In this document: piece after piece, positions 900-24,230 of the stretch | Layout of the letters: every line of letters starts with the position of its first letter | Numbering within the stretch: position 1 is the stretch's first letter | Virus record (IMG/VR): IMGVR_UViG_3300045988_034843 | DNA length: 25,609 bases | Reading direction: 5' to 3' (one strand) | From: a virus | Taxonomy: Duplodnaviria; Heunggongvirae; Uroviricota; Caudoviricetes | Notes under the pieces: generated by a model | The model's database searches: none | What the model was told of the DNA's origin: nothing | What the model saw: the letters and a program-made list of their open reading frames with translations, nothing else | Made by a program: the position numbers and the translations under genes

Positions 900-1004
900 G
901 TTAAATCTCCAGATAGTCGCAGCACCCGTTGCGCCGCATATCTGGTTATTCTATTACCTGAAAAACCATATATGGATAAAAAGACTATAAATACCAATAG
1001 ATAT

Positions 1005-1019
1005 TACCTTTCGGGTAAT
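1005..1019. promoter_or_regulatory. Dyad operator-like site TTACC-TTTCG-GGTAA (copy 1 of 6)
   Basis: Exact 5-bp inverted half-sites with 5-bp spacer, flanked A...T; 76 bp upstream of the ATG at 1095. Confidence 0.6.
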
Positions 1020-1055
1020 TTGCAAAACGTGCTGGATAGCAAACAAATTATTTGT

Positions 1056-1075
1056 TACTGTATAAACATACAGTT
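1056..1075. promoter_or_regulatory. LexA (SOS) box TACTGTATAAACATACAGTT
   Basis: CTGT-N8-ACAG with AT-rich spacer, close match to the E. coli LexA consensus TACTGTATATATATACAGTA; contains TATAAA (-10-like); 20 bp upstream of the ATG at 1095. Confidence 0.7.
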
Positions 1076-1094
1076 ATTGCATGGAGAAGATAAG

Positions 1095-1352
1095 ATGCAG
1101 CAGTATCACTATCCACTGGAAGACGGATTTACCGAAAGGATTCACACGCCGGGAGGCGTCAGGTCACTGGTGGAGGGATCGCACTTGATGAAATTACTCC
1201 GGGATCTCGATAAGGATGGATTTAATGTCGATGGCCCACTTGCCGAACTGACTGCACTGATTAACTACGTCACCAGCTCACAGATGTCTATGCAGGATCT
1301 GCAAACACATCTCGACTATTGTGCCGAACAATTACGAAAACAAACCCGGTAA
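1095..1352 (+). CDS. Small (85 aa) protein paralogous to the C-terminal domain of the Ant-like protein at 2503-3159; putative LexA-controlled antirepressor/induction factor
   Basis: Internal ATG of track ORF 972-1352 with GGAGAAG RBS 7 nt upstream; the 972 start would place the LexA box and dyad inside coding sequence; about 50 percent identity by eye to residues ~150-210 of the 218-aa Ant-like protein (IHTPGGV..LMKLL..DG..V.G..AELT...DLQTH). Confidence 0.6.
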   Translation: MQQYHYPLEDGFTERIHTPGGVRSLVEGSHLMKLLRDLDKDGFNVDGPLAELTALINYVTSSQMSMQDLQTHLDYCAEQLRKQTR

Positions 1353-1359
1353 ATTTAAA

Positions 1360-1375
1360 GGCCGCAAGAGCGGCC
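1360..1375. terminator. Hairpin GGCCGC-AAGA-GCGGCC between convergent genes
   Basis: 6-bp GC stem with 4-nt loop directly after the stop at 1352 and overlapping the minus-gene stop at 1375; T-rich on the minus-strand side. Confidence 0.5.
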
Positions 1376-2103
1376 TATCGTTTCGCTTTGTGCTCGTCCC
1401 AGCACGTTTTGCACCATGCCATTAAGCCATCCGCATTTTGATTATTAGGGTAAAAGCTTGTTCGTTTTCTGCGGACATTACAAATTGGGCACCACTTCAT
1501 ATGGCGTGTATTCTTTGGGCCATCGAGACACCTTGCACACCACTTAGTCAATCCATCTGGATTTTTTGACGATTTCCTGAATTTTTCATATGGTAGGTTT
1601 ATTCTGCATCGCAAGCACTGCTTGCTACCACTTGAAACTCTGTTAGCTGATTCTTCTTTTGGCGGCGATACAGAAGGTATTCTTGCTGGCTCTGATACTG
1701 CCTGAGGTGCTTTTTTAGATGACTGAGACGATATGTCATCACCAGGGAATCTTCCATGATATGCCGGACGCGTTGACACTCCAGGTGGAAGCTCAGCTGT
1801 AAACGGCTTTGGCTGAATCAGTTGCCTCTCTTTTGCTAACTCCTGCTGTTTATAATATGTCTGGATTACCGCACTATCATAAGCAGGAGGTGCGGAAATA
1901 TTAGGCGCATTACCTCCAGTTTTTTGAAACTGAGTAGAGGTGTGTTCTATCACCTGTGTACGATTAATCGTTATCTCCCCATCTTCGGTCTTTATCGTTT
2001 TGTTATGATTAACGACCGTACGATCAGAGATCTTAGTCTTGTTCTGGTTGATAACGTAAATAATCACCGCAACCACACCAACAACTATCCAGAAAACTTC
2101 CAT
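1375..2103 (-). CDS. Membrane-anchored protein with tandem C-x2-C-x22-C-x2-C zinc-ribbon-like repeats (242 aa); function unknown
   Basis: Track ORF; N-terminal hydrophobic helix (VFWIVVGVVAVIIYVI); C-terminus has two repeats CLRC...NPDGLTKWCARC and CPIC...NADGLMAWCKTC; GAGGAAAA RBS upstream of ATG at 2103. Confidence 0.7.
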   Translation of the reverse strand: MEVFWIVVGVVAVIIYVINQNKTKISDRTVVNHNKTIKTEDGEITINRTQVIEHTSTQFQKTGGNAPNISAPPAYDSAVIQTYYKQQELAKERQLIQPKPFTAELPPGVSTRPAYHGRFPGDDISSQSSKKAPQAVSEPARIPSVSPPKEESANRVSSGSKQCLRCRINLPYEKFRKSSKNPDGLTKWCARCLDGPKNTRHMKWCPICNVRRKRTSFYPNNQNADGLMAWCKTCWDEHKAKR

Positions 2104-2123
2104 TGCTTTTCCTCACAATAACA

Positions 2124-2138
2124 TTACCTTAAAGGTAA
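2124..2138. promoter_or_regulatory. Dyad operator-like site TTACC-TTAAA-GGTAA (copy 2)
   Basis: Centre 28 bp upstream of the minus-strand ATG at 2103; overlaps a candidate TTGATC-N17-TACCTT promoter on the minus strand. Confidence 0.6.
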
Positions 2139-2216
2139 TATCTTGCTTTCAGGTGATCAAGCGTTAAACGCAATCAACCAAATACGGTTGATTTTAATAT
2201 TTCTTCGCGTTTATCA

Positions 2217-2231
2217 TTACCTTTGCGGTAA
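2217..2231. promoter_or_regulatory. Dyad operator-like site TTACC-TTTGC-GGTAA (copy 3)
   Basis: Same half-sites and spacing; lies in the 400-bp intergenic region between the divergent genes at 2103 and 2503. Confidence 0.55.
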
Positions 2232-2321
2232 ATTTACATTGCACTCCTCTTGTGCCATAGTAATCGGGCACTGGCAAAATCCAGTGCCGGGATTGGTCTC
2301 CCGGATTACTAAGTGGCGCAT

Positions 2322-2344
2322 ACCACGCCAGACGTGGTTTTTTT
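2322..2344 (+). terminator. Rho-independent terminator-like hairpin in the leader upstream of the Ant-like gene
   Basis: ACCACG-CCAGA-CGTGGT stem-loop followed by TTTTTT(T); preceded by two further hairpins at 2267-2288 and 2287-2304. Confidence 0.5.
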
Positions 2345-2502
2345 ATGCGTATAGCACAGTCATGCCAGAATTATGGTGGGCTGAATGGGGGTCCGAAAGG
2401 ACGCCGGTACCACTTAGGCCGGTAAGACCAACTCCGTTCAGTTCACCACCATCTGATTGGTCTCAGCGGTGGTGATGTAATTCGCTAAGTGGAGACGCCA
2501 TC

Positions 2503-3159
2503 ATGAACGCTCAACTCATCCCCGTATTCAACGGCACTATATCTAACGAAACAGCCCTACTTTGTAATGCCCGCGATCTGCACGCTTTTTTAGGTGTTAA
2601 AAAGGTGTTTGCAGCATGGATTACAAATCGCATATCAGAATACGAATTCATTGAAAATCAAGACTATATTTTGCTTTCCAATTTGGGAAAGCAAACATCT
2701 GGTAGAGGCGGCCACAACCGCAAAGAGTACCACCTCACCCTTGATACAGCCAAAGAGCTGGCGATGGTCGAGCGTAACGAAAAAGGTCGCCAGGTGCGAC
2801 GCTACTTCATTGAATGCGAGAAACGTTTAAGACAACAAGAAACAAAAGTGGAGAAGGTCTTGTCAGGCTTCATGCCCGCCATTATGGAGGCGATCAAGCT
2901 GGAAGACAAAAAAGAATACAGCGCCCCACTGAAGCCCGGCTACCGCAGCCTGATTCACTCGCCGTCTGGTGTTCTCGGCCTGACTGAGAACTCACTGCTG
3001 ATGAATCTGCTGAACCAGTTACAGGAAGACGGGCACGATGTATCTGGCGCGGCGGCGGAGCTGACCACCATGTTCTGCTACATCGTTGGTGTGAGCAAAT
3101 GCCTGCGTGATATCCAGACCCACGCGGAGTACATCAACGACAAGGCAGGGTTCTTCTGA
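2503..3159 (+). CDS. Antirepressor-like protein, AntA-type N-terminal domain (218 aa)
   Basis: Track ORF; GGAGA RBS 7 nt upstream; N-terminus IPVFNG...[10 protein letters not shown]...F..W...RI.EYEF.EN.DY resembles the AntA/AntB antirepressor domain as I recall it; C-terminal third is paralogous to the 85-aa protein at 1095-1352. Confidence 0.7.
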
Positions 3160-3244
3160 CGAGCGGCGGCACATGGATGTGCCTACAATTATCAATAATT
3201 GTTTACACTCGTTGCAGTTAAAAGCATTATACTCATGTTTAAAA

Positions 3245-3259
3245 TTACCCGATTGGTAA
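3245..3259. promoter_or_regulatory. Dyad operator-like site TTACC-CGATT-GGTAA (copy 4)
   Basis: Centre 29 bp upstream of ATG 3281, downstream of a TTATACT -10-like element. Confidence 0.6.
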
Positions 3260-3280
3260 AGTCGATTGGTTGAGGTTCAT

Positions 3281-3607
3281 ATGAGCAGAAGATATGTCAA
3301 GGAGCTGGCTATAGAGTCTGGCACCCCTTTGGGTATCGTTCCTGGCTCCAACTATGCCAAGGCTTTAAACCGAGACTCTGTCGTCAAAGTTATATCAAGA
3401 GACATGAATATGGTCGGAGACGATCTCAGACGGTCAGAAAATCGTGTTTATGCTGAATATATAGTAAAGAACGGAAAAAAAATTGCAGCGCCTGCTGGCG
3501 GAAAATGGGCAATAGTGACAGGGAAAAACTCAAATGCAAGAGGAAAACCAGAAGCTAAAGGAATGTCCTTCGACAAATATGCAAAAATCTATTGGGCAAC
3601 CAAGTGA
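3281..3607 (+). CDS. Hypothetical protein (108 aa)
   Basis: ATG 3281 with GAGG 7 nt upstream (track ORF 3266-3607 trimmed to this ATG); AT-rich, lysine-rich; no motif I recognise. Confidence 0.55.
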   Translation: MSRRYVKELAIESGTPLGIVPGSNYAKALNRDSVVKVISRDMNMVGDDLRRSENRVYAEYIVKNGKKIAAPAGGKWAIVTGKNSNARGKPEAKGMSFDKYAKIYWATK

Positions 3608-4968: not shown

Positions 4969-7443
4969 TTATTGCGGAGTGACATCCTGTGGTCGCCACC
5001 AGTATGTCTGGTTAAACTCTTTCTTCGAACGTTGCTCCATTTTACGCAAATAGCCTGGTGAAAAATACTCCTGCATCTGGTTAAAGATCATGTGATCGAG
5101 AGCCGCCTTCAAGTACCAGAGATTCGCACCAGGCATCAAACCTTTCCCCAGCTTCACCAGATCACCACCAGTCTGCTCACTCTTCCCTTCCACAGCATTT
5201 AACGGTATGCCCTGAGCAATCTTCACTACGTCATCAACCAGACCAGCTACCGGGCCAAGCATCGACGCCAGCGCGCCGCTTCCGTACCTAGTGTGATCTG
5301 ACAATAAAAAGTCACCGTAAAGGCCAAGACCACCACCTTTCAGTAGAGCACCAAGCCAGAATTTTGCGGCATCTTCTCCTGTCATCTCTCGAGGATTACG
5401 ACCAGACGCAAGGTCGTTAAGTTGCTGCGACAAAGCGCCAAGAATGGTCGTACTGGCAATAAACGTCGCAATATATGCCGCACGCCCACCAGCAGACGGC
5501 ATACCCATAGCGCGTGACCAGTGACGCATAACAACCGAGATAGGGAACGATTTAAACAGGAAAACACTTCTCGTTAATTCACCTTTCCATGTTCCACGCT
5601 GAATACCAGAACCGGTTATCAGTTGCTCACGTGCTCCCGGTGTAATAACAGCCATATCAACTTCTTCAGTTACGGCACCGAGCAGTTTACGCATTGCCTC
5701 AAATTTCACGCGTTCAGGCTCACCAAGATGTTTAACTGCTGAATCAGGGATACGCATAATGCTTTCCGGTGTCAGCATCGTATTATTACCGTTCCCCCAG
5801 TCCTCCTGTTTCGCCAGCTTCCATACGCTCCAGTCTGTGTCAGTAATCCCTTTGCTTTTCAGGATACGAAAATCAGAGTCATCGAGGCTACGAAGGTCTG
5901 GTGTCCGTGACACTACTTCTCCCAGGCTTCCCATCATGGTTACGCCATAGGCGCGCTTGTGCGCATCTGACCATGCTGTAAGCCCACTGGCACGCATTAC
6001 CGCCGTTGCCGCCCAACGAGACACTGACGGCCCCATATTATCCATCGCCCAGCGGTTAACGCTGCCAAGTAGAGATTCCATCGCCAGACCAGCGCGGCGC
6101 GCCCGCGCAAGTTCTGTACGGTTCGTTGGGTCCATAGCTTCAAGCTGGTTGCGGAATAACTGGTTCATTGGAAGGTTGGTAACCTTCGCAGACAGATACA
6201 TGGTTCCAAGATCAGAGAACGATGACAGCAACGCGGATCCGAGTCTGCTGGCAACCAGCCAGTTGCGGATATTGTCAGACCATCGCGCGATGTGCGGATT
6301 CGCTACAGGCTGTGTCTTTCCGGAAATAAAGTTGTACAGATTCTCTGTGTTGTTCGCCAGCCGCTCGACTTTACCGGTTTTACTCGGGTTAGCTGTTGCC
6401 GTTTCTGCCTTCACCTGATCAAGAAGAGAGCGGAAAACATGATCGGGGTTTGGGCCATATGTTTCCACCAGTGCAATATCTTTACTGATACCTTCCAGGT
6501 GACCGACCATGATTTCCCATAGAGAGCGATCGCCATAAAGTTGCTGATATTGCAGATAGGAATCTGCATCTTTGAAATGTATCTGTCGTGATGCATTACC
6601 ACGGTTAGCACGTGCGCCGGAAATTCGCATTCCGGTATCAGTAAGCTTATTCAGCCCACCAGTAGCGATCGTGTTATAAGCCTCTCCAAGAAATGAAGAC
6701 AACTCGGCATCGTTCATCAGTTGTCCATCGGCTCGGATATAATATTTGCGATCCAGCTTACCTATAACATCGCTAACCCACTTATCCTTTGATACTGCCC
6801 CAACCTTTTCCATAGAATGATGTTGAGGGATCCCCCAGTTTTCGAGATAGCCAATGTCCCCACCAGCATCATTAAACCGGCGGCGCAGCAGCTCTGTAAC
6901 TTCTCTCCACGCCTTAGCACCGTTTCTTGCTTTAGCATTGCCAGTATTTTGCCCCCGCATTTCATATACCAGGTCACGTACGCCCGCTTCATCTTCAAAC
7001 AGACCAAAAAAGCGAGGATCAACTGCTTCGAATGCCTCCTGCAATTGACTCAATGCATAATCACGGGTGGCTTTTGTTCTGGATTCAACAGAGAGGAAAT
7101 TAGATTTACCGTCTGCATTAAAAGCTATAGTACGGTTAAGAGCGCCAAGTTTCCCATCAGCCCCTTGATAGCTATTGATAAATTTATCCAATCTCTGACG
7201 CGCGGCTATAGTGAGAGCCACACGACGTTTCTTTAATGCCGCTTCTCGCTGTAATTCTTCAGATGCCAATTGTGCTGCTCGATATAGCCGCTCTGATTCG
7301 GAAAGTTGTCGCCACGACATAGGGTCATCACGAGCAATGGAGCGCATATTTCGATAAATGCGGTCTTCAATGTTCTGTATTTCTCGCGCCGTTAACATGC
7401 GCTGCGCCGCCTGCTGAACCGCTTGTATACATTCCTGTCTCAT
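4969..7443 (-). CDS. Large internal virion / DNA-ejection protein (824 aa), gp16-like by position
   Basis: Track ORF; last gene of the structural operon before the accessory island; size and position consistent with a podovirus ejection protein. Confidence 0.6.
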   Translation of the reverse strand: MRQECIQAVQQAAQRMLTAREIQNIEDRIYRNMRSIARDDPMSWRQLSESERLYRAAQLASEELQREAALKKRRVALTIAARQRLDKFINSYQGADGKLGALNRTIAFNADGKSNFLSVESRTKATRDYALSQLQEAFEAVDPRFFGLFEDEAGVRDLVYEMRGQNTGNAKARNGAKAWREVTELLRRRFNDAGGDIGYLENWGIPQHHSMEKVGAVSKDKWVSDVIGKLDRKYYIRADGQLMNDAELSSFLGEAYNTIATGGLNKLTDTGMRISGARANRGNASRQIHFKDADSYLQYQQLYGDRSLWEIMVGHLEGISKDIALVETYGPNPDHVFRSLLDQVKAETATANPSKTGKVERLANNTENLYNFISGKTQPVANPHIARWSDNIRNWLVASRLGSALLSSFSDLGTMYLSAKVTNLPMNQLFRNQLEAMDPTNRTELARARRAGLAMESLLGSVNRWAMDNMGPSVSRWAATAVMRASGLTAWSDAHKRAYGVTMMGSLGEVVSRTPDLRSLDDSDFRILKSKGITDTDWSVWKLAKQEDWGNGNNTMLTPESIMRIPDSAVKHLGEPERVKFEAMRKLLGAVTEEVDMAVITPGAREQLITGSGIQRGTWKGELTRSVFLFKSFPISVVMRHWSRAMGMPSAGGRAAYIATFIASTTILGALSQQLNDLASGRNPREMTGEDAAKFWLGALLKGGGLGLYGDFLLSDHTRYGSGALASMLGPVAGLVDDVVKIAQGIPLNAVEGKSEQTGGDLVKLGKGLMPGANLWYLKAALDHMIFNQMQEYFSPGYLRKMEQRSKKEFNQTYWWRPQDVTPQ

Positions 7444-21036: not shown

Positions 21037-21051
21037 ATTACCTTTCAGGTA
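21037..21051. promoter_or_regulatory. Dyad operator-like site TTACC-TTTCA-GGTAA (copy 5)
   Basis: Same half-sites and spacing; preceded by TTGACA (21016-21021) 17 bp before TACCTT; lies between the 20947 minus-strand start and the plus-strand tRNA. Confidence 0.6.
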
Positions 21052-21374
21052 ACCAAAGAGTTCATTCCGGTTACTAACCTGACTGGCTTGTCGTTAAATT
21101 GAACAGGTGGAGTGAGCTTTTATTTTGAGCAGTACGGCGTATGGCACATGCGCCGATAGCGGTCTGGATGCGTTTAAGGGGCACCCTCCCTGGCTGTGGC
21201 AAACGAACCAGGTAGCCGGAATGTGCAAGTCGAGCGGTTTTATTCCGCGCACGGGGATTCACCATCCCGGCGATTCGGTGTGACGCCTCGGAAGAGACGA
21301 GGGTACAACGATGAGAGCATTTATGGAGCCGCGACAAAGTGTGGCGCCTTAACAGGCTAAGTGCTCTCAGCGTT

Positions 21375-21451
21375 GTGGCATTAGCTCAGTTGGACAGAGC
21401 AACCGCCTTCTAAGCGGTTGGTCGCAGGTTCGAATCCTGCATGCCACGCCA
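21375..21451 (+). tRNA. tRNA-Arg (anticodon UCU), 77 nt with encoded CCA
   Basis: Hand-folded cloverleaf: acceptor GTGGCAT/ATGCCAC, D-arm GCTC-AGTTGGACA-GAGC, anticodon stem ACCGC/GCGGT with loop CTTCTAA, T-arm GCAGG-TTCGAAT-CCTGC, discriminator G, CCA; close to but not identical with E. coli argU as I recall it. Confidence 0.85.
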
Positions 21452-23591: not shown

Positions 23592-24187
23592 TGATTGCCA
23601 TCCTGACGTTCTTTCAGTCTCTTCCTGGCTGCCGCTATGCGATCAGCAATTGTCACATTCACATTAACATCCAGGCGTTCTTTGAATGCGTTGACGTCGA
23701 CGTGCTTACCAATCAGTTCGAGGTTCTTCACCTTGTCAGGCCATTTAATTTTTTTGAGGATGCCAACCAGCTCTTTCTCGTCTCCACGGCCTTCGAACAT
23801 GTCGGCCAGTTCGAAACCTGTCAGGTACTGCCGCCAGACCTTAGGCCATTCCGAGACCGGCTTGATGCTCATATCGTCGTTGAGAATGTCAATCACGTCC
23901 ATCTGGTCGATCTCCACCAGGCGCATGAGAACGTAATCAGCACTGACGCGCATTCGTTTGTTGCGCTCCTCCATCAACTCGGCAATCCGTTTCTGAATGC
24001 GTTCATCGCGCATCATGACACTGGCTTTAACTGCCGCTGTATTTGGGGAGAATCCTGCATTAATCGCAGCCTGAGTCTGGTTTTCAGGCGTTTTGATGTA
24101 TGACTGGCAATAAGCCTCCTGCATTGCTGTTAGTGGCTTAAATTGCGTTGATTTGCGTTTATAGGTTTTAGGTTCAGCAGGCATCAT
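23588..24187 (-). CDS. Terminase small subunit (199 aa from ATGATG at 24187)
   Basis: Track ORF 23588-24265 begins at a TTG; the in-frame ATGATG at 24187 is preferred; helix-turn-helix-like TAMQEAYCQSYIKTPENQTQAAINAGFSP; directly upstream of and overlapping the large subunit. Confidence 0.55.
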   Translation of the reverse strand: MMPAEPKTYKRKSTQFKPLTAMQEAYCQSYIKTPENQTQAAINAGFSPNTAAVKASVMMRDERIQKRIAELMEERNKRMRVSADYVLMRLVEIDQMDVIDILNDDMSIKPVSEWPKVWRQYLTGFELADMFEGRGDEKELVGILKKIKWPDKVKNLELIGKHVDVNAFKERLDVNVNVTIADRIAAARKRLKERQDGNQ

Positions 24188-24204
24188 AACCACCGTGGTA
24201 ATAG

Positions 24205-24219
24205 TTACCGTTGTGGTAA
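24205..24219. promoter_or_regulatory. Dyad operator-like site TTACC-GTTGT-GGTAA (copy 6), embedded in GGTAA-TAG-TTACC-GTTGT-GGTAA-TAG-TACC
   Basis: Centre 25 bp upstream of the terminase small-subunit ATG; extra half-sites on both sides form a tandem GTGGTAATAG(T)TACC direct repeat. Confidence 0.55.
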
Positions 24220-24230
24220 TAGTACCATGC

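Follow-up and report, generated by a model that had tools for sequence, protein, structure and literature searches.

A predicted LexA-controlled antirepressor switch in an epsilon15-like phage of Escherichia coli, orthologous to the ant system of SPC32H

Several Salmonella prophages produce an antirepressor upon self-cleavage of LexA, according to a review (PMC7380047) that cites Kim & Ryu 2013. The antirepressors of Gifsy-1, Gifsy-3 and Fels-2 are likewise reported to be SOS/LexA-controlled proteins that replace self-cleavage of the repressor (Lemire et al. 2011, PLoS Genet 7:e1002149; PMC3121763). The closest described system is that of phage SPC32H, with its antirepressor Ant and its repressor Rep (Kim & Ryu 2013, J Virol 87:11775; Kim et al. 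2016, PNAS 113:E2480; PDB 5D50, 5D4Z). According to PMC9638917, Ant forms a tetramer that engages a pair of Rep dimers and disrupts the tetramer of Rep.

The locus described here lies in a window, by which we mean the whole stretch of DNA that was analysed (25,609 nucleotides, 25.6 kb), and this window belongs to an epsilon15-like (Uetakevirus) podophage of E. coli. Indeed, a megablast of positions 900-3300 against phage records matched the epsilon15-like E. coli podophages TL-2011b, phiv142-3, EC.W1-9 and phiV10, and the ant region of EC.W1-9 is 98% identical to that of the window. Among complete E. coli assemblies, the best match covered 88% at 97.6% identity, the region being mosaic. The map of open reading frames begins at the left end with a tail-fibre gene (minus strand, start at 898), which is followed by a short plus-strand island; over the next 20 kb or so, the minus strand carries virion, portal and terminase genes. 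Among the latter, a tRNA-Arg gene (anticodon TCT; 21375-21451, plus strand) is carried on the strand opposite to the flanking virion genes, and its location corresponds to that of the SPC32H tRNA-Arg. The order of the genes in the window is that of SPC32H genes 001-021, and the synteny extends to the two flanks of ant, one occupied by a divergent tail-fibre/tailspike gene and the other by virion genes. This is the Uetakevirus-type context of ant, divergent from the tailspike or tail-fibre gene and adjoining the virion block; in the window, the tail-fibre gene and ant share an intergenic region of 196 bp.

Downstream of ant, a GC-rich hairpin (AGGCCGC-N4-GCGGCCT, 1359-1376) is likely to be a bidirectional terminator between ant and a convergent gene of 242 codons (1375-2103, minus strand), and a rho-independent terminator is annotated at the equivalent place in the epsilon15 record. 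The 242-aa protein has an N-terminal transmembrane helix and two Cys4 zinc-ribbon repeats, gives weak matches to Stc1, endonuclease VII and Lar-like proteins, and falls into phrog_6762 (function unknown). This gene is probably an inserted moron, because it is missing from SPC32H and phiv142-3; its equivalent in TL-2011b is annotated as a misc_feature only. On the tail-fibre side of the intergenic region, a separate conserved block (945-977) contains TATTACC (a Rep half-site), a -10-like element TAGAAT (946-951, minus strand) and CCATATATGG; it is possibly the divergent tail-fibre promoter, and an IHF site is annotated near its equivalent in the epsilon15 record.

The plus-strand gene at 1095-1352 (stop codon at 1350-1352) encodes a small antirepressor of 85 aa and is an ortholog of the SPC32H ant. 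Indeed (i) its product shares 88% identity over 83 aa with the annotated product of SPC32H ant, (ii) it matches chain E of PDB 5D50, 'Anti-repressor protein', in a phmmer search (E=4.1e-47), and (iii) it matches phrog_450 (E=9e-48). The SPC32H Ant that is present in the 5D50 crystal, in complex with Rep, is 86 aa long. No significant Pfam match was obtained for the 85-aa protein, and the Bro-N (PF02498), AntA (PF08346) and KilAC domains were not found in it. Its homologs, mostly of 85-86 aa, come from Escherichia, Salmonella, Citrobacter, Klebsiella and related genera, and nearly all of those found are labelled 'hypothetical protein', since neither Pfam nor NCBIfam holds a model for Ant.

A LexA-consensus box of the form CTGT-N8-ACAG had been claimed at 1056-1075, some 20 bp ahead of the ribosome-binding site and ATG of the 85-aa gene, by an earlier sequence-only reading of this DNA. 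The predicted LexA (SOS) box, TACTGTATAAACATACAGTT, is exactly there, and it ends 19 nt upstream of the ant ATG (1095), against 158 nt to the tail-fibre ATG. A LexA position weight matrix was built from 29 E. coli boxes, whose own scores range from 12.5 to 26.4 bits; these training boxes follow the compilations of Lewis 1994 and Fernandez de Henestrosa 2000. Scoring with a matrix, which the same reading had proposed as a check, gave 26.1 bits for the box and 10.6 bits for the next site of the window, and 26.1 bits was reached in 0 of 500 shuffles (maximum, 22.8). The box is also the only match to the 20-bp LexA consensus with at most three mismatches in the 25.6 kb, 0 being expected from 100 shuffles. 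The shorter pattern CTGT-N8-ACAG occurs three times in the window (0.37 expected), the other two occurrences being intragenic, GC-rich and of at most 10 bits.

All 16 relatives compared (11 phage records and five bacterial genomes, nine genera, those named being Escherichia, Salmonella, Enterobacter, Klebsiella, Citrobacter, Erwinia, Pseudocitrobacter and Scandinavium) have a LexA box at this position, and its spacing to ant is constant throughout. Thirteen of these 16 boxes score 22-27.5 bits, the exceptions being the mutant phage SPC32N and two Klebsiella phages. The five bacterial loci were retrieved by scanning a genome collection with a single protein query; boxes of 23.6-25.1 bits stand at the identical distance from the gene in the loci of Citrobacter braakii, C. 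werkmanii, Candidatus Erwinia dacicola, Pseudocitrobacter and Scandinavium. In the two Klebsiella phages (L009 and L010) and in loci L021 and L031, the left half-box has ATGT in place of CTGT (15-19 bits), which could reflect either a weakened LexA site or an adaptation to a different affinity. Among more distant standalone homologs of Ant, a strong LexA box accompanies one and degenerate boxes accompany two, whereas three (L024, L025, L029) lack a box altogether. No LexA box was found for any fused paralog of Ant in the relatives, or upstream of the gene for a 218-aa protein of the window, which is described below.

SPC32N, the spontaneously lytic twin of SPC32H, differs from it by 2 nt across the 19.7 kb that were compared directly. 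One of the two differences changes ACAG to AAAG in the LexA box of ant and lowers its score from 25.0 to 18.1 bits, and this SPC32H box is the one with which the box of the window aligns in every column. Kim & Ryu 2013 reportedly described SPC32H and SPC32N as two nucleotides apart, with a mutation of the LexA site that renders Ant constitutive and the phage lytic. The box mutation of SPC32N fits this account.

In an alignment of 12 phages, the intergenic region contains four conserved blocks, namely a Rep-operator-type repeat (1003-1019), GCTGGATAG (1031-1039), the LexA box and TGCATGGAGA, which includes the ribosome-binding site GGAGA (1083-1087, plus strand), 7 nt upstream of the ATG. A scan for the sigma-70 consensus gave no match of at least 9 of 12 positions around the LexA box. 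The GCTGGATAG block, which contains TGGATA, hardly varies in 15 of 17 loci. The putative promoter of ant would be composed of TGGATA as -35 element (1033-1038, plus strand) and, after a spacer of 17 nt, of TACTGT as -10 element (1056-1061, plus strand), which is the left end of the LexA box, so that the box would overlap the -10; we infer this arrangement from conservation and by analogy with p95 of phage 186. TTGTTA-17-TATTGC and TTGCAA-17-ACAAAT were also considered as ant promoter and were dropped because their -10 hexamers vary among relatives.

A palindrome of 15 bp, AACAAATTATTTGTT (AACAAAT-T-ATTTGTT), lies immediately before the box; it is perfect, as had been described, but its position is 1042-1056, one base to the right of the 1041-1055 given for it, and its last T is common to the LexA 20-mer. 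It is perfect in the window only, 6 of the 7 arm positions being kept in TL-2011b, phiV10 and phiv142-3, and it is absent from the Salmonella, Enterobacter and Klebsiella relatives. There is no second copy in the window, where palindromes with 7-bp arms and a loop of 0-3 number 13 (5.6 +/- 2.2 in shuffles). A role as second operator was set aside for a palindrome that is not conserved, occurs in a single copy and does not go beyond chance; it is probably incidental, within the likely promoter spacer.

Between the divergent tail-fibre and ant genes lies ATTACCTTTCGGGTAAT (1003-1019), a predicted Rep operator in the form of the inverted repeat ATTACC-N5-GGTAAT. This motif occurs seven times in the window (1003-1019, 2123-2139, 2216-2232, 3244-3260, 21037-21053, 24186-24202 and 24204-24220), against 0 expected, and most of its copies directly precede transcription units, among them late ones on the portal and terminase sides. 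The repeat at 1003-1019 is invariant in all relatives, at a constant distance from ant, and the orthologous site is annotated as 'repressor' binding in the epsilon15 record. The motif stands on both sides of rep in SPC32H (12 copies in total) and also flanks rep in EC.W1-9. It does not differ among the relatives from E. coli, Salmonella, Citrobacter, Erwinia and Scandinavium, in spite of an identity of only 42% between Rep proteins. As judged from these motifs, the distribution suggests that one repressor would directly occupy many promoters and that hosts may share immunity. The Rep operator is about 50 bp upstream of the LexA box, so ant could also be controlled by Rep, which would complicate a switch governed by LexA only.

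Rep is not encoded in the window, the immunity region being outside. A homolog of SPC32H Rep is encoded in all 35 phage records that carry ant. The Rep of EC.W1-9 matches chain A of 5D50 (E=4e-42) and has helix-turn-helix (HTH) domains only, with no S24 peptidase. The Rep proteins of the E. coli relatives share only 42% identity with SPC32H Rep, against 88% for Ant; their C-terminal segment is somewhat better conserved (about 50% as counted from the alignment, versus the protein average of 42%). The interaction between Ant and Rep is assumed for the window phage, because its Rep lies outside the window and the Rep of the E. coli relatives is so much less conserved than Ant.

The 85-aa gene is very likely the ant of epsilon15-like temperate phages and part of a host LexA-repressed SOS switch that acts on Rep. 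The suggestion of an SOS-controlled antirepressor induction switch, made in the sequence-only reading, gains support from the orthology with SPC32H Ant and from the positionally orthologous LexA box. In a lysogen, host LexA bound at 1056-1075 would keep ant silent, the box covering the likely -10 element (TACTGT) and the transcription start. Upon DNA damage, RecA would become active, LexA would cleave itself and ant would be transcribed. Ant would then bind Rep, which is an HTH protein and lacks a peptidase domain for self-cleavage, and dismantle its DNA-binding tetramer; with Rep off the ATTACC-N5-GGTAAT operators, the lytic genes would be expressed. Direct observations are the orthology with SPC32H Ant, the strength of the LexA box together with its uniqueness and conservation, the start of the gene, the occurrence of Rep operators in the window and the strict co-occurrence of Ant with homologs of Rep. 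LexA binding and repression, SOS-dependent expression of ant, formation of the Ant-Rep complex and disassembly of Rep are reported for the SPC32H ortholog and would carry over by analogy. The presumed target of Ant is the phage's own Rep, encoded outside the window.

This reading depends on the start of ant. Were the true start the ATG at 972, the protein would have 126 aa and the LexA-like sequence would be coding DNA and not an operator. The frame from 972 is indeed open in the window and in SPC32H, this ATG is invariant across 12 sequences and the 126/127-aa form is often called by gene callers (833 members in cluster P0003). However, the extension of 41 codons is interrupted by in-frame stops in TL-2011b, phiV10, phiv142-3, epsilon15, Tyrion, BUCT554 and 65FD and is frameshifted in two Klebsiella phages, its conserved 'residues' correspond to DNA motifs (the Rep operator, GCTGGATAG, the LexA box and the ribosome-binding site), a good ribosome-binding site precedes 1095 and none precedes 972, and the crystallised SPC32H Ant has 86 aa, not 126. 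The start at 972, which the earlier reading had named as the finding that would make the box intragenic, is thus broken in most relatives and extremely unlikely, and the LexA box is intergenic because this start is rejected. The 126/127-aa calls made from ATG 972 (clusters P0003, P0012, P0020 and P0031-P0035) engulf the Rep operator, the promoter and the LexA box; as a point of annotation, they are over-extended ORFs.

With the box intergenic, it could still serve the divergent tail-fibre gene, or both genes, instead of ant specifically, since the 196-bp region is common to the two genes and LexA boxes, being palindromic, have no orientation. This is very unlikely: the box is far closer to the ATG of ant than to that of the tail-fibre gene (19 nt versus 158 nt), its distance to ant is fixed in all relatives, the mutation of the SPC32N box reportedly acts via Ant, and the tail-fibre side has a conserved block of its own with the TAGAAT -10-like element. 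The divergence of Rep between the E. coli and Salmonella lineages (just 42% identity) raises another doubt, namely that the switch is an inactive relic in which the E. coli Ant no longer recognises its Rep and induction takes another route, such as the 218-aa antirepressor with the same C-terminal domain that is also encoded in the window. Against this, purifying selection is evident across nine genera for Ant, its ribosome-binding site, the LexA box and the -35-like block, Ant is accompanied by Rep in 35 of 35 records, and the C-terminal segment of Rep is conserved above the average of the protein, all of which makes a relic hardly credible. A LexA-repressed ant acting on Rep is the best-supported reading of this locus.

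The second antirepressor, of 218 aa (2503-3159, plus strand), combines an AntA N-terminal domain (PF08346, 4e-26) with an Ant-like C-terminal domain (aa 137-213), which itself matches chain E of 5D50 (5D50_E, E=4.6e-14). The 85-aa protein had been regarded as a paralog of the C-terminal domain of this larger protein, and it does align with residues 137-210 (42% identity, E=3e-16). The 218-aa gene is immediately preceded by matches to two RNAs in tandem, namely isrK (2268-2344, plus strand; Rfam, 67.7 bits) and a C4 antisense RNA (2369-2453, plus strand; Rfam, 61.2 bits), both above the gathering threshold; they form a control region separate from the LexA unit. This isrK/C4 cassette, set into an epsilon15-like backbone, resembles that of P1 immI or Gifsy-1, and the Rep-type operator at 2216-2232 abuts a predicted isrK promoter, TTTACA-17-CATAGT (2233-2261).

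Antirepressors seem to exchange domains, as judged from window 2503-3159, L033:1493-2122, L001:4101-4796 and 5972-6916, L007:2172-2876 and L031:2001-2960. The AntA N-terminal domain of the 218-aa protein is at least 81% identical to that of a Stx-phage antirepressor and the C-terminal domains of the two proteins are unrelated, which would imply that C-terminal domains are swapped to match the resident repressor. In relatives, the Ant-like domain forms the end of Bro-N and pRha-type proteins that adjoin small ant genes. TL-2011b encodes two such fusions (gp46 and gp42), of which gp42 lies beside an Arc-like repressor, and further copies are present in Tyrion gp20, L021 and L031, either as Bro-N/pRha fusions or beside an Arc-like repressor. 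In phiV10, the second antirepressor (L002:3266-3945, p23 + p22) is frameshifted within its Ant-like C-terminal domain and annotated as two genes; it is probably a pseudogene. The notion of a 'minimal antirepressor module' put forward for the 85-aa protein agrees with the 86-aa SPC32H Ant crystallised with Rep and with the occurrence of the same domain at the end of AntA, Bro-N and pRha antirepressors. We tentatively regard it as quite possible that the Ant fold is a portable Rep-recognition module deployed repeatedly under different inputs (LexA for the standalone 85-aa copy, and an isrK/C4 control of the P1 immI type for the copy behind the AntA domain). No description of such a multi-input, domain-swapping arrangement of Ant was met in the literature searched. 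If true, signals for induction or anti-immunity, whether dependent on the SOS response or not, would converge on a single repressor by way of paralogous binding domains, and the pattern of domain swaps would provide a testable rule for predicting which antirepressor pairs with which repressor.

Tum of phage 186 and the Gifsy antirepressors, which had been cited as precedents, hold as functional analogues and not as relatives, as judged from a comparison with Tum and from the description of the Gifsy proteins. In phage 186, the LexA box ends 19 nt before tum, its left end, TACTGT, is the annotated -10 of p95, and Tum is likewise a small antirepressor that inactivates a non-cleavable repressor (CI). 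However, Tum has 146 aa and is annotated as DinI-like, the phage belongs to the P2-like myoviruses, and a single BLASTP comparison of Ant with Tum gave no similarity (E=0.061 over 46 aa with gaps). The antirepressors of Gifsy-1, Gifsy-3 and Fels-2 are, by description, different proteins and belong to lambdoid or P2-like prophages. The immI region of P22 has its ant in the same place, between the virion genes and the tailspike gene, and P1 resembles the window in the C4 RNA that precedes the second antirepressor gene; yet P22 immI Ant is controlled by Mnt/Arc and P1/P7 immI Ant by the C4 antisense RNA, whereas the 85-aa Ant is predicted from its upstream region to be controlled by LexA.

The true precedent is SPC32H Ant, which is orthologous and shares with the present locus its position in the genome, the position of the LexA box, the block of the ribosome-binding site, the Rep operator motif and the Rep family of the relatives. 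The differences are the host of the window phage (E. coli), the spacer of the LexA box (ATAAACAT in the window and ATGTTTAT in SPC32H), the low identity of the cognate Rep of the E. coli relatives, and the downstream inserts of the window that SPC32H lacks, i.e. the gene of the 242-aa zinc-ribbon membrane protein and the isrK/C4/AntA-Ant cassette. The switch is thus the E. coli counterpart, by orthology, of a system whose genetics and structure have been characterised, and the finding is not new because of this precedent. In this family of E. coli prophages, with relatives among those of EHEC/STEC (e.g. TL-2011b and phiV10), induction would be tied to DNA damage without a self-cleaving repressor, and the remaining interest of the locus lies in the Ant domain, which recurs as a swappable C-terminal module under differing control inputs.
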